Origin: Planctomycetaceae bacterium
GTDB taxonomy: Bacteria; Planctomycetota; Planctomycetia; Pirellulales; JAEUIK01
DNA: 27,265 nt
NCBI GenBank assembly: GCA_015493185.1
Contig: WGDQ01000745.1
Coordinates: 1 to 27,265 of the forward strand
Reading direction: 5' to 3'
Both the position numbers and the translations under genes were made by a program. Positions within the stretch are counted from its first letter, which is position 1. Each line of letters starts with the position of its first letter. This document shows, piece after piece, positions 19,102 to 23,533 of the stretch. The notes under the pieces are model-generated. The model was not told where the DNA came from and ran no database searches. It worked only from the letters and a program-made list of their open reading frames with translations.

Positions 19102-22056
19102 TTATTGTCCGCCTGCCTGTCCCGCCTCGCCTTTGGCAGCGGGTGCCGGCGGTTTGACCATGGCGGAAATCGACGTTTTTCGTTGCATCAATCGGTCGTA
19201 GTTCATCAGCAGGTCGACCACCGCATCCAGTTGTTCGAGCCGGTCTCCCTTGAACAGCTCCTGCGGAGCCGGTTTCTCGAAGTTGTCTGGCATGCCGGTA
19301 TAAGGCAGCAGACTTTTGGGCTTGCCGAGCCAGCGACGCACGAATTCAGGACGCAACCGCTTGTGCACGCGCTCCAGGTTCGGAGCCAATGCAGTCACAC
19401 TGCCCGGCGGTCGGTAGTCGCCCACGAGATGGCACTTCACGCAGTAGTTGTTGTCTACAACAATCCGCAGCGCGTCGTCCAAATAGCCGGGATGCTTCGC
19501 TTCCATCGTGGCCAAATGGCTTTCCTGCGTCCGCTGGTCGAACTCATAAGGAAATTCAGCGCCATCGGTCGCGGCAAAATAATCCACCAGCCGCGATGCT
19601 TCGTCGGACGAGAGGTTGAATTTCGGCATTCTCAGTACAACCGCCGGACGGATCGGATAGGGATCGAGCAGGAACTCGTGCAGCCACTCGGTTTGCACTT
19701 TGATGCCTTCATTCACCAACGGCGGCGGAACCCAGCCCCACGCATCACTCGGCTTCACGTTCGGATCGGGCGACTGCTTCAACACCACCGGGTGAAGATA
19801 ACGCGCCAAATGCCCGCCAACCGCAGGCCACTGCTTCGTGATCGAGGCGACGGGCACCATCAAGCTCGGTCCGCCCACGACCCAGATCTCACCGTTCAGC
19901 ACCGCCGGCTTCCAAAGATCGAAGTAGTGGATTGGAAACTCTTCTTCGGGGTGCTCATCGGTCACGATCTTGCCGTCGGTACTCCTCAGCGGCAGGCCCT
20001 CCACCTTGCCATGGCCCAGGCCACGACGATCGACCTGCTTCGATTTCTCGATTTCCTCCGGCGTGAAATGCGGCATGAGGAAATCGAAACTGTATGGGGC
20101 TGAGCTGCCGAAGTCGCGAGTGAACGTCTCGGGATTGAACGTGAATTCCCACGTTTCAGTCTGCAACATATGGCAGCCGGTGCAGTTGAATTTATCGAGC
20201 ACCTCCGTGCCAGCCAGCTCGGCCTTGCGCTGCGGGTCGGGATGAAAAACGTACTGATCGGCTGGCGGCTCGGCAACCAGCCCGAGCACGAACGTGATGA
20301 TCGATTCGATCTGCTTGTCTGAAAGTGGGAACTTCGGCATCCGCAGACGCTCGTTGTAGCCCATTGTTTCGGTTTTCTTGTAATCGAAACTGCGGGGCTC
20401 GTGCAGCTTCTGCCAGATGAAGCCTTCGCGGCGATGGTTCAACAACGCGTGAACGAAGAATCCGGTGTCTGGGTCCAGGTCTTCAACCTTCACTTCATGA
20501 CCATCGCCGAGCTTTTTGGCGATGTACGTACTAATCTGTTCGAAAGCCAGCCGCGAGGTGTCTTTCCGTCCCCAATCGGCCAGCGTGGTGCCGATCGGCT
20601 TGGCGTCCTCGAACCCCGGCACGTCATGACAGCCGAAGCAGCCGTACTTGCTCATCGACTTTCGGCCGATGTAGTCGAGCTTTTTCTCCAGCGTCATCTG
20701 GCCCTCGCCAATCAGGGCCAATTCGGCTCCCTTGAGCTCTGAGGCCAGCCCTTCCGGGATGCCTCGCTTCAAGTACCGGCGGGCCTGGCTCTCGGTGAAC
20801 GTATTGCTCAGGTATTCCAACGCCAGCTCGTCGAGCGCTTCGGTCAGCGAAGCGATTTCAGGCATCTCGCCCGGCTGCCACGGCTGGCTCGACTCGATCA
20901 GGTACGCCGCGATGTCGGCTGCCGGATCGATCTGCACGGCATTTTCGCCGCTGCCTTCGGTGTAAGGCTCAAGCTTCAAATCGGGCATACGCGTGCGGGC
21001 ATGGTATTTGTCGGGATGCCGGAGCCACGTGTACAGCCACCGACGACCGTCGTCGCCTTTGCCCGATAGCTTGGCACCGATGCGCGATAGATCGGGCCCG
21101 AAGTCCGAACGAGGATGTTCCGCATCGGGAAACTCGTGATGGCGGTGGCAAGCCAGGCAGCCGCGCGTTTGGAACAGTTGCTTGCCACGCTTTGCGTCTG
21201 CCTTTTCGGGAAGCGGGTCGTACTCGAATGGCTGCGAGTTGGCCAACAGATACTCGGTCAGGGCATAGATTTCGACCGGTTCGAACTTTTGTGCCACGGC
21301 CAACCCTTCGGGCACTTCGTCGGAAGCACTCTCCTCATCGTCGTCGGCATGGCTTTCCTCATCCGACGTGCTTCCAGTGCCGCCGTGGTGTTTACCTTCC
21401 CCCTGCTCATGAGACGAGCTGGCGTGTTCCATGCCGATGCCATCTTTCAGGTGGTCCCACTGGCCGAAAAAGCGAGGCATGCGCGTCGTCGGCCGGAAAT
21501 GTTGCGGATCGCGGATCCAATCGTAGAGAAATCGGCGATCGACCTTTTGCCCCACATACCGCAGGCTGGGACCAACCTTGCGAAGTCGGCCGGGGGTTTC
21601 CGTCTCAGAGCCTAGGATGTCGGCCAACTTATGCGATTGGGCACTGAGGCGAGCGTCGCCTTCCTCTGCCTGCGCATCGGCCTCGATCAGTTCGGCTAGC
21701 CGGGCACGCGATTCGGCGTCGGTCGGGTCGGCTGCCACGGCCTGTGCGAGGCGCCGCTCGTCGTCGCTGAGATTGGGATCGGTCAGCAGTTGCAACGCCG
21801 CGGCGTAGTAAGGCGGTTCGGCCCGTAGATCAGGTCCAACGCGTCGGTCCGGACCGTCGAACCCATTGATTTCGTGGCACCCAAAACATCCGAACTGCTT
21901 GACCAACTGGTAGCCCTCGAGCACCTTGGGGGCCGGCGGGTTGGGAAACCGCTTGCTCGGGCCAAGCTCAACCACATCGAAATGGCATTTCAGACAACTG
22001 CTTTCTGCAAACCGCTTGGGATACATGGGGAAGTCCCACAGGTGGGTGATTCCCAT
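19102..22056 (-). CDS. Giant multiheme cytochrome c, C-terminal part (6 CxxCH); frameshift-separated from 21968..23533
   Basis: CLKCH, CFGCH, CLACH, CFGCH, CTGCH and CVKCH, with repeated GP-x-L...W...P...RMP class I domains. It has no signal peptide of its own. Confidence 0.9.
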   Translation of the reverse strand: MGITHLWDFPMYPKRFAESSCLKCHFDVVELGPSKRFPNPPAPKVLEGYQLVKQFGCFGCHEINGFDGPDRRVGPDLRAEPPYYAAALQLLTDPNLSDDERRLAQAVAADPTDAESRARLAELIEADAQAEEGDARLSAQSHKLADILGSETETPGRLRKVGPSLRYVGQKVDRRFLYDWIRDPQHFRPTTRMPRFFGQWDHLKDGIGMEHASSSHEQGEGKHHGGTGSTSDEESHADDDEESASDEVPEGLAVAQKFEPVEIYALTEYLLANSQPFEYDPLPEKADAKRGKQLFQTRGCLACHRHHEFPDAEHPRSDFGPDLSRIGAKLSGKGDDGRRWLYTWLRHPDKYHARTRMPDLKLEPYTEGSGENAVQIDPAADIAAYLIESSQPWQPGEMPEIASLTEALDELALEYLSNTFTESQARRYLKRGIPEGLASELKGAELALIGEGQMTLEKKLDYIGRKSMSKYGCFGCHDVPGFEDAKPIGTTLADWGRKDTSRLAFEQISTYIAKKLGDGHEVKVEDLDPDTGFFVHALLNHRREGFIWQKLHEPRSFDYKKTETMGYNERLRMPKFPLSDKQIESIITFVLGLVAEPPADQYVFHPDPQRKAELAGTEVLDKFNCTGCHMLQTETWEFTFNPETFTRDFGSSAPYSFDFLMPHFTPEEIEKSKQVDRRGLGHGKVEGLPLRSTDGKIVTDEHPEEEFPIHYFDLWKPAVLNGEIWVVGGPSLMVPVASITKQWPAVGGHLARYLHPVVLKQSPDPNVKPSDAWGWVPPPLVNEGIKVQTEWLHEFLLDPYPIRPAVVLRMPKFNLSSDEASRLVDYFAATDGAEFPYEFDQRTQESHLATMEAKHPGYLDDALRIVVDNNYCVKCHLVGDYRPPGSVTALAPNLERVHKRLRPEFVRRWLGKPKSLLPYTGMPDNFEKPAPQELFKGDRLEQLDAVVDLLMNYDRLMQRKTSISAMVKPPAPAAKGEAGQAGGQ

Positions 22057-23533
22057 GCCCCACGTAGTGGCTGCTCACCCAGCCGTATTTCTCCCGCCAT
22101 TTTTGGCGTTGTAGCGGATCGTTCGGAGAGTGAGCCGCCCAACGAAATTCTGTTGCGCTTCCCTGCCCTTCATGGCAGATCGTGCAGCCGAATTCCATCA
22201 TCTTATGGGGGCTGAACGAGCCGAGATACAAATCGAGCCGCGGATGGCTCGCATACGGGTGCGGCAAACCTCGCCGCACGACAAGCTTCAGCGGCTTGCC
22301 CCAGTCCACGATTTCGAGCAAGTACTGCATCGCGGTTTCTTTGTCGATTATGCGTGCATCGTTCACTTGCTCGATTACATCGCCAACAAGCAATCCCGCT
22401 TTTGCCGCAGGGCTCTCAGGATACACTACGTGCACGGTCACGTCGTTCGGGGCGAGCACGCCCGAATCGGCCAACAACATGCCATAGGCGGCATCCAAAA
22501 AGTCGTTGAGCCGGTCCATCGTGGGCTGAAGCGGATTGCCTTCTTCATCCACCGGACGGTTGTCGGTAGCCAACTCGAGCGTCACGCGATGCTCGTGTTC
22601 GATGAATGGTTCGGTGGCCGAGCCGGGTGCCGTGCGTTGGATGCCTTGATGGCACGTGATGCAGCGATCGAAACGGGCCACTTTCTTGAAGTTGTAGTCG
22701 ATCTTCAGTTCAGGCAGCCACACTTGCTCGATGCGGTCGGGCGAATTGAACGCCGAGAGAATCGGCCACTCCAGAATCCCCTCGCCGGGCGATATGGTCT
22801 GCTCTTTCAGTGCCGTGTGCAGCCGCTCAATCTCTGCGTTGGCCGCATCGAGTTCCTTTTGCGCCTTGACCACATCGGCGTTGATTTCAGCCAGCAAATC
22901 TTCGAGTGCCTGACGATATGTGGATATCGCGTGGTACTCGATCGTTTTCTCGCGCACGACGTCGCGCATCCGCTCCACGTTGCCGCGTAGCCGTCGTTCT
23001 TCACTGGCCGTAACCCCGTGGCCAATAGCAATTCCCAGTTCGCTCCTGACCACATCCAGATCGGCGCGAGCGAATTTCAGTTCGCGCAGCGCGTTTTCCT
23101 CACGCACTTTCAGATTGGAGATGATCGTCTCGAGCTGCCCGATAAACGCCGATCGTGTCGCCGGACCCGGCTGAGCGGCCAGAGCCTCGTACGCGGCCTG
23201 AACCGGATCCCAATTGAAATCGGGATCGTTTTCCGCAACCACTTTACGGAATTCTTCGACCAAGTCGGCCGGTGGCACTTCGCTTTGTGCCGCTTCGAGC
23301 GCCTCGCGCGCCTTACGAACCCGCTCGGGATATTCAAGCGTCTGCTCTTCTCGCAAACGCCCGGCCGTGCGCCAGGCCTCGACTTTACGATAGGCCCGTT
23401 GATACCGTTTCCATTGGCGGTTGTGATCGGCAAACAACATCCAAACAGTGGCCAACAGCATGCCGAGTGCTGTGAGGCCGAAAACCACGTGCAGAAGCCT
23501 GATGTTGTGCCAGGTCTTTTCGCTTGCGGGCAT
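21968..23533 (-). CDS. Giant multiheme cytochrome c, N-terminal part (TM anchor, coiled coil, 2 CxxCH, PDZ)
   Basis: TM at aa ~13-35, heptad-rich aa ~130-245, DRCITCH, PDZ-like SPAAKAGLLVGDVIEQVND and FGCTICHEGQG. The last 25 codons look out of frame. Confidence 0.9.
   Translation of the reverse strand: MPASEKTWHNIRLLHVVFGLTALGMLLATVWMLFADHNRQWKRYQRAYRKVEAWRTAGRLREEQTLEYPERVRKAREALEAAQSEVPPADLVEEFRKVVAENDPDFNWDPVQAAYEALAAQPGPATRSAFIGQLETIISNLKVREENALRELKFARADLDVVRSELGIAIGHGVTASEERRLRGNVERMRDVVREKTIEYHAISTYRQALEDLLAEINADVVKAQKELDAANAEIERLHTALKEQTISPGEGILEWPILSAFNSPDRIEQVWLPELKIDYNFKKVARFDRCITCHQGIQRTAPGSATEPFIEHEHRVTLELATDNRPVDEEGNPLQPTMDRLNDFLDAAYGMLLADSGVLAPNDVTVHVVYPESPAAKAGLLVGDVIEQVNDARIIDKETAMQYLLEIVDWGKPLKLVVRRGLPHPYASHPRLDLYLGSFSPHKMMEFGCTICHEGQGSATEFRWAAHSPNDPLQRQKWREKYGWVSSHYVGHGNHPPVGLPHVSQAVCRKQLSEMPFRCG

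Follow-up and report, generated by a model that had tools for sequence, protein, structure and literature searches.

In the anammox bacterium Kuenenia stuttgartiensis, a b6f-like complex (Kustd1480-1485), in which cytochrome b is split and subunit IV is enlarged, carries, in place of cytochrome f, a membrane-anchored multiheme cytochrome (Kustd1485) with long N-terminal helices, and in AlphaFold3 models the long helices of this octaheme subunit wrap around the complex (PMC12954380). A PDZ domain and c-type heme motifs occur together on one periplasm-side polypeptide in the magnetochromes MamP and MamE (PMC3971196). The window analysed here, the whole 27,265-nucleotide (nt) contig WGDQ01000745.1 of a fragmented metagenome-assembled genome (MAG; 1003 contigs, 80% complete) from a Planctomycetaceae bacterium, encodes on its minus strand (19102..23533) an octaheme cytochrome c of 1476 amino acids (aa) when a break in the reading frame is read through, with a PDZ domain between its first and second heme motifs. 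To our knowledge, no respiratory complex is known to contain a PDZ domain, and planctomycete respiration is almost unstudied. The best explanation of the locus as a whole, held at a probability of about 0.6, is that this gene encodes a PDZ-bearing octaheme cytochrome subunit of a planctomycete b6f-like quinol oxidase, facing the periplasm and held in the membrane by one N-terminal helix.

A PDZ domain within an eight-heme cytochrome

The PDZ domain extends over aa 310-425 (22259..22606; this and all other features of the window named below are on the minus strand). Within it, aa 363-422 matched the Pfam families PDZ_6 (1e-9, 38.4 bits) and PDZ_2 (2.9e-7, 31.1 bits), both above the gathering cut-off, which is 27 bits for either family, and PDZ_2 was also matched by 54 of 58 homologous inserts. 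The AlphaFold2 model of aa 1-494, for which 64 sequences were used as input, gave a mean predicted local distance difference test score (pLDDT) of 84.7, and the score over aa 310-425 was 91-97. The top 14 matches of this fold by Foldseek against the PDB were all PDZ domains, with target template modelling (TM) scores of 0.56-0.81, and by VIA-align the model residues 314-422 were superposed on PDZ1 of Scribble with Z 11.5 and a root-mean-square deviation (rmsd) of 1.8 A over 84 of 92 residues. These observations altogether show that the insert between heme motifs 1 and 2 is a real PDZ domain, as had been proposed in a preceding interpretation made from the DNA letters alone (the sequence-only reading), all coordinates of which were rechecked and found to be correct.

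The loop before strand 2 of the domain reads Y350-G351-M352-L353, in which G351 is invariant and Y350 is present in at least 90% of the 64 sequences, and G412, R421 and G422 are also nearly invariant. Y350-G351-M352 corresponds to the carboxylate-binding loop of PDZ domains. This loop (Y-G-hydrophobic) belongs, with the groove helix (A..YLL), to the best-kept parts of the insert. The nearest sequence likeness is to the PDZ domains of the HtrA family, and HtrA models matched through the PDZ part only and far below their cut-offs; no trypsin-like protease domain was detected by Pfam in either of the two open reading frames (ORFs) into which the gene is split. The search against solved structures with the sequence of a close relative, P0004, yielded only weak matches to PDZ domains and class I cytochromes.

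A homolog of the octaheme cytochrome was found in 169 of 401 genomes sampled across the phylum. The PDZ insert was detected in 224 of 301 genomes of the order to which the window belongs, representing 29 of its 30 families, and was still present in a divergent family, while neither Pfam nor a custom hidden Markov model (HMM) of the insert detected a PDZ domain in lineages outside the order. Five non-matching genomes of the order were checked, and these gave no match to the octaheme cytochrome whatever. The spacing between hemes 1 and 2 is 147-247 aa in relatives from the order versus 39-113 aa in most others. The PDZ insert is thus shown to be found only in this order and the eight-heme scaffold to be phylum-wide. 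By this distribution, the PDZ domain is a single old acquisition, kept wherever the octaheme cytochrome is kept. The family is large and visible in databases, where its members are labelled, for instance, 'c-type cytochrome' or 'PDZ domain-containing protein', and no paper on a PDZ domain in a planctomycete cytochrome or bc complex was found in the literature.

The loop between hemes 1 and 2 is an insertion hot spot: three further lineages of planctomycetes carry unrelated inserts of 160-210 aa in it, none of which gives a PDZ signal. The hot spot fits a purely structural role of the domain, in which no C-terminal peptide is bound and the PDZ fold shields or positions hemes 1 and 2 or mediates dimer contacts, as does the PDZ domain of MamP, a PDZ-plus-heme protein for which a structural role is known (PMC3971196). 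This role is also in line with the fact that none of the C-terminal tails compared below could be pinned down as the partner, but the carboxylate-binding loop and the groove helix rank among its best-conserved regions, as is expected of a working peptide groove, and a structural role is regarded as rather doubtful.

A total of eight heme motifs were identified, two in the upstream ORF (P0001) and six in the downstream ORF (P0002). Motif 1 (CITCH, aa 291-295, 22649..22663) is included in an invariant FDRCxxCH and is followed by motif 2 (CTICH, aa 450-454, 22172..22186), motif 3 (CLKCH, 21982-21996) and, 36 residues past motif 3, motif 4 (CFGCH, 21874-21888); motifs 5 (21145-21159), 6 (20626-20640), 7 (20170-20184) and 8 (19429-19443) are CxxCH sequences each followed by an invariant Met-Pro. 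All eight CxxCH are kept in all of the 26 phylum-wide homologs aligned. Among the same 26 homologs, three extra His are conserved (H430 in 26, H468 in 26 and H443 in 25), as are the five Met of the Met-Pro motifs in P0002 (M193, M357, M573, M810 and M922; 26 each), with the Pro after M922 being kept in 22. The candidate distal ligands, three His and five Met, are therefore exactly eight in number. From this conservation, hemes 1-3 would be bis-His ligated through H430, H443 and H468 and, together with the adjoining heme 4, would form a compact module similar to cytochromes c3 and c7, and hemes 4-8 would be His/Met ligated through the five Met-Pro motifs. The count of eight hemes given by the sequence-only reading was borne out, while its assignment of the six later motifs to repeated class I domains was not, as the pattern of conserved ligands is that of three bis-His hemes in a compact module plus five His/Met hemes.

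The model of the C-terminal 984 aa (pLDDT 80.2, predicted TM score 0.81) includes a heme-5 domain with the class I fold, superposed on SoxX with Z 9.8 and rmsd 2.0 A and on cytochromes c1 with Z 5.6-6.5. Foldseek gave no match for the C-terminal model at E up to 0.001, and no solved protein matched the whole heme arrangement by structure comparison. Between motifs 7 and 8, aa 630-745 of P0002 (window about 19822-20169) form a beta-rich domain of about 115 residues with a pLDDT of about 87-96, for which no fold match was obtained.

The N-terminal membrane anchor is a hydrophobic segment at aa 13-35 (23429..23497), as the sequence-only reading had noted, and is followed by a helical domain at aa 40-245 (22799..23416; model pLDDT 96-98). 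The heptad-like stretch pointed out at 22799-23146 was also recovered, as long helices at aa 124-171, 176-217 and 219-245 with an AlphaFold2 pLDDT of 96-98. The stretch had been taken as a coiled-coil stalk, by which a long heme wire is held at a distance from the membrane while the PDZ domain docks a cupredoxin, the diheme cytochrome or an oxidase subunit. In the model, however, residues 136-226 form an antiparallel helical hairpin that superposes on the hairpins of AcrA, EmrA and F-BAR arms with Z of about 10, a likeness that is unspecific for helices. Because the hairpin returns to its starting point and brings both ends together, the helical region models as an arm rather than as a spacer stalk. 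The wrapping of the long octaheme helices around the complex in the Kustd1480-1485 models (PMC12954380) also speaks against a stalk.

The octaheme gene is located in an operon that begins with the gene for a Rieske iron-sulfur protein (26585..27166, C-terminus ..CYIPV), followed by the cytochrome b6-like N-terminal half of a split cytochrome b (25564..26337) and an enlarged subunit IV-like protein with about 10 transmembrane helices (23888..25207). Downstream of the octaheme gene are a small lipoprotein ORF, two cupredoxin genes assigned by synteny (16849..18797), a diheme cytochrome c lipoprotein (15497..16708) with a flexible tail ending in ..TRARL, and subunits II (CoxII, 14410-15213) and I (CoxI, 12602-14413) of an aa3-type oxidase; past CoxI are encoded CtaA, CtaB, CoxIII, an ABC-2 transporter, SCO and a DUF420 protein. 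The small lipoprotein ORF (62 aa, about 18807-18995, lipobox ..LIGGAC) carries an acidic Pro/Ser-rich tail, sits between the octaheme gene and the first cupredoxin gene, and is also called as a gene in a second assembly described below.

The gene order Rieske, b6, subunit IV, octaheme cytochrome, cupredoxin(s), diheme cytochrome, CoxII, CoxI was the same at each of the 60 loci that were fetched from the order, and the part from Rieske to cupredoxin is kept also in many distant PDZ-less relatives of the phylum. No gene for cytochrome c1 or f was found in the 80%-complete genome, and neither c1 (PF02167) nor cytochrome f was among the Pfam matches of either ORF at E up to 0.1. Because of this conserved gene order and since no c1 or f gene was found, the octaheme protein is very probably the cytochrome subunit of a b6f-like complex, in the place of c1 or f, as the sequence-only reading had also supposed. 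The complex falls in the APWY Qo-motif clade, no member of which has been characterised (PMC4122944). Electrons from quinol would enter at the Rieske cluster, travel along the heme chain, be handed to either the cupredoxins or the diheme cytochrome, and so reach the aa3 oxidase.

Frameshift and state of this gene copy

The octaheme gene of the window is split into two ORFs, P0001 (21968-23533, 521 aa) and P0002 (19102-22056, 984 aa), which overlap by 89 nt. Alignment of the junction indicates that these are one gene with one extra base. The break is at 22054..22063 (GTGGGGCATG), where the sequence is read as GTG GGG C ATG and the surplus base lies, by comparison with intact relatives, within or beside a run of four G, being either a G of the run at 22058-22061 or the C at 22057; the intact relative P0005 reads ..SSHYVG-MGITHLWDFPM.. 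across the junction. By tblastn against the genome of the window itself, both frames were joined at 22052-22059. The read-through product consists of aa 1-492 of P0001 and the 984 aa of P0002, giving the single protein of 1476 aa that had been predicted.

More than 3300 relatives were returned by the search with P0002. Among the matches listed, 116 were full-length relatives of 1437-1600 aa, each of which is one protein spanning both ORFs and carries exactly eight CxxCH, and the eight motifs are not a matter of chance, because all 116 agree in this number. The gene is intact in the close relatives P0004 and P0005. No signal peptide or export signal of its own was found in P0002, and this part cannot work as a separate cytochrome because it lacks such a signal; the candidate that P0002 is a separate protein was rejected on this ground and on its fusion in all relatives.

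The same split is present in a second assembly, scaffold_522 of ENA ERZ23495063 (L036), as ORFs of 521 and 974 aa, with the frameshift at L036:10001-10059. L036 is 99.75% identical to the window over 18.2 kb, with 43 substitutions and two indels, and both indels are intergenic. Both assemblies look accurate within genes, because only their intergenic parts differ by indels. A pattern scan of JGI metagenome contigs with either allele of the break site gave no match.

The presence of the same split in a sequence that differs by 43 substitutions and two indels speaks for a real insertion, which would make the gene a recent pseudogene in this population. The lack of a signal peptide in the downstream ORF agrees with such a state, and loss of the cytochrome could be tolerated because the genome holds two further cytochrome b genes (contigs C108:3736-4299 and C540:1045-1614), which could compensate for it. 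Among 11 substitutions in P0002 between the window and L036, however, seven are synonymous versus 23% expected (P about 0.005), and therefore the P0002 part must have been under purifying selection until very recently, or may be so still. In addition, P0004 and P0005 are intact, and the two assemblies may come from overlapping read sets. Overall, a recent pseudogene is a serious candidate that falls short of an even chance, while a consensus error common to both assemblies is given about even odds. The site bears no likeness to known signals of +1 frameshifting, and recoding by a programmed +1 frameshift at GGG-C was set aside as very improbable, given that the A-site holds an ordinary His codon and the close relatives are intact.

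The cytochrome b gene on C540 adjoins an open frame of 828 aa that weakly resembles the part of the octaheme cytochrome around hemes 2-4. In several genomes of the same order with very long contigs, the octaheme gene is spread over several frames, probably by indel errors, and split calls of this long gene are common among public assemblies. The possibility that the gene is inactive in this genome matters for metabolic reconstruction of this MAG.

Candidate tails for the PDZ groove

Because the carboxylate-binding loop is kept, the most likely function of the PDZ domain is to hold on to the free C-terminus of a second protein in its assembly. The C-termini of the proteins encoded at 61 PDZ-bearing loci were compared with those at up to 25 PDZ-less loci. 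PDZ domains of HtrA proteins read hydrophobic C-termini such as Y-x-F. Subunit IV of the window ends in ..PEYFLNF (23891-23908), and its last residue is Phe (..EYFLNF) in 56 of 61 PDZ-bearing loci and in none of 25 PDZ-less loci, where the end is ..FFNI or ..FFNV. The changes between the clades are at positions 0 and -2, those that PDZ domains read, and the tail is predicted to be periplasmic by hydropathy and the positive-inside rule. The whole 19-residue periplasmic tail of subunit IV (aa 421-439, 23891-23947, ..KYIVFIPEYFLNF) is conserved phylum-wide, ending in Phe within the PDZ-bearing order but in Ile or Val outside it.

The Rieske protein ends in [SC][FY][VIL]x[VA] in 56 of 61 PDZ-bearing loci versus 3 of 24 PDZ-less loci. 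In the diheme cytochrome, the last residue is hydrophobic at 34 of 60 PDZ-bearing loci, and the end is of the R-x-R-L/F type, more exactly R-x-[RAQNL]-[LFM], at 28 of the 60; neither feature was found in 13 PDZ-less loci; in the window, this flexible tail is encoded at 15500-15547, and R-x-R-L/F is seen in about half of the loci of the order. The cupredoxins terminate in ..FKK, the tails of oxidase subunits I and II are variable and polar, and so is the C-terminus of the octaheme cytochrome itself; neither the cupredoxin nor the oxidase ends resemble PDZ ligands. The small lipoprotein ORF was rejected as a ligand, its tail being polar and acidic with the end ..APSQ. Covariation of PDZ groove residues with tail types yielded family signatures only, and complex prediction of the PDZ segment with the last 44 residues of subunit IV returned a score of 0.00 (mark 0.32) at low pLDDT, which weighs on neither side as to binding.

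The diheme tail and the constant location of the genes for carriers and oxidase beside the octaheme gene are observations that agree with the docking of a downstream carrier by the PDZ domain, as the sequence-only reading had it. The ends of the cupredoxins and of oxidase subunits I and II do not agree with it, and 26 of 60 loci lack the diheme motif while the residues of the PDZ groove hardly vary, so that docking of a carrier, taken together with the stalk on which it was to stand, is unlikely. A tentative alternative, on the tails and their positions, is that the PDZ domain is a built-in clamp on the tail of a core subunit (..EYFLNF of subunit IV or ..SFVxV of Rieske), by which the heme 1-4 module would be fixed at the Rieske docking site. 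With such a clamp, the single gain of the PDZ domain at the root of the order would have coincided with changes at precisely those two positions of the tails which PDZ domains read. As to the individual partners, the periplasmic subunit IV tail is a possible though doubtful one, the Rieske tail and the diheme tail are each improbable, and there is a considerable chance, if below one in two, that the partner is something else or that there is none.

Several points weigh against the overall interpretation of the locus and against the clamp in particular. The membership of the octaheme cytochrome in the complex is deduced from gene order, and heme ligation, including the assignment of ligands to hemes, from conservation; AlphaFold2 places no hemes, and the loops of hemes 1 and 2 were modelled poorly (pLDDT below 50). 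This copy is frameshifted, with a downstream part devoid of an export signal, and may no longer be functional in this genome. Lineages without the PDZ domain conserve the subunit IV tail just as well, so that its conservation needs no PDZ domain. A free Rieske tail is argued against since, in the crystal of Kustd1480 (9rk3), the C-terminal end pairs with strand 4 of the same protein (PMC12954380). The diheme motif, as noted, is missing from many loci in spite of a highly conserved groove. All of the tail contrasts between PDZ-bearing and PDZ-less loci represent one evolutionary event, not independent evidence, and are leads only.

If the clamp on a core tail is true, this would be the first respiratory complex III-type enzyme in which a PDZ domain mediates assembly or gating, and if the PDZ domain tethers a subunit or a carrier, it would give bacteria a simple and testable means of connecting a quinol oxidase with its acceptors. 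The comparison yields three defined candidate tail peptides, those of subunit IV, Rieske and the diheme cytochrome. The eight-heme scaffold, with its putative three bis-His and five His/Met hemes, is a phylum-wide module. New in this analysis are the frameshift common to a second assembly, the origin of the PDZ domain at the level of the order on a phylum-wide scaffold, the account of ligands for all eight hemes, the reading of the helices as a hairpin, and the three concrete tails.

Comparison with known systems

Among solved structures, the best relative of the window Rieske protein is Kustd1480 (PDB 9rk3, E 3.5e-42). The locus has in common with the Kuenenia system a b6f-like complex in which cytochrome b is split, subunit IV is enlarged and cytochrome f is replaced by a membrane-anchored multiheme protein with long N-terminal helices. 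An anammox-like genome (G326) encodes one octaheme homolog of 945 aa with the same eight motifs and ligands, and the phylum-wide eight-heme module probably includes the anammox octaheme subunit. The anammox systems differ in having no PDZ domain by Pfam or the custom HMM, and Kustd1485 is likened here by description. Unlike Kustd1480-1485, the window operon includes no NAD(P) oxidoreductase and is coupled to cupredoxins and an aa3 oxidase. G326 (L117:12390-15227, L118) carries three Rieske genes; its Rieske-b6 operon has two large ORFs (539 and 530 aa) between b6 and subunit IV, at the position where the Kuenenia operon has NAD(P) reductase genes, and its octaheme homolog is located outside this operon at a distance of about 14 kb.

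With cytochrome c1, cytochrome f and the actinobacterial diheme QcrC, the octaheme cytochrome shares the place in the operon and a presumed uptake of electrons from the Rieske cluster. Its heme-5 domain is of class I, with weak likeness to QcrC and to cytochromes c1 at the Z scores given above. It differs from these subunits in having eight hemes instead of one or two, a length of 1476 aa, the PDZ insert, and an anchor that is N-terminal, in contrast to the C-terminal anchor of c1, f and QcrC, besides giving no Pfam match to c1 or f.

The PDZ domains of HtrA, DegP, DegS and DegQ are the most similar in sequence, are likewise periplasmic and have the same type of carboxylate-binding loop (Y/L-G-hydrophobic), but the octaheme cytochrome is without a protease domain, and its PDZ domain is inserted inside a multiheme module. 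The combination of a PDZ domain with c-type heme motifs on one periplasm-side polypeptide is similar to that in MamP and MamE (PMC3971196), but is different with respect to the heme units, which in these proteins are unrelated short magnetochromes, and to the function, which is iron oxidation for magnetite and not respiration. In MamP and MamE the PDZ domain stands beside the heme units, whereas in the octaheme cytochrome it is inserted between two heme motifs.

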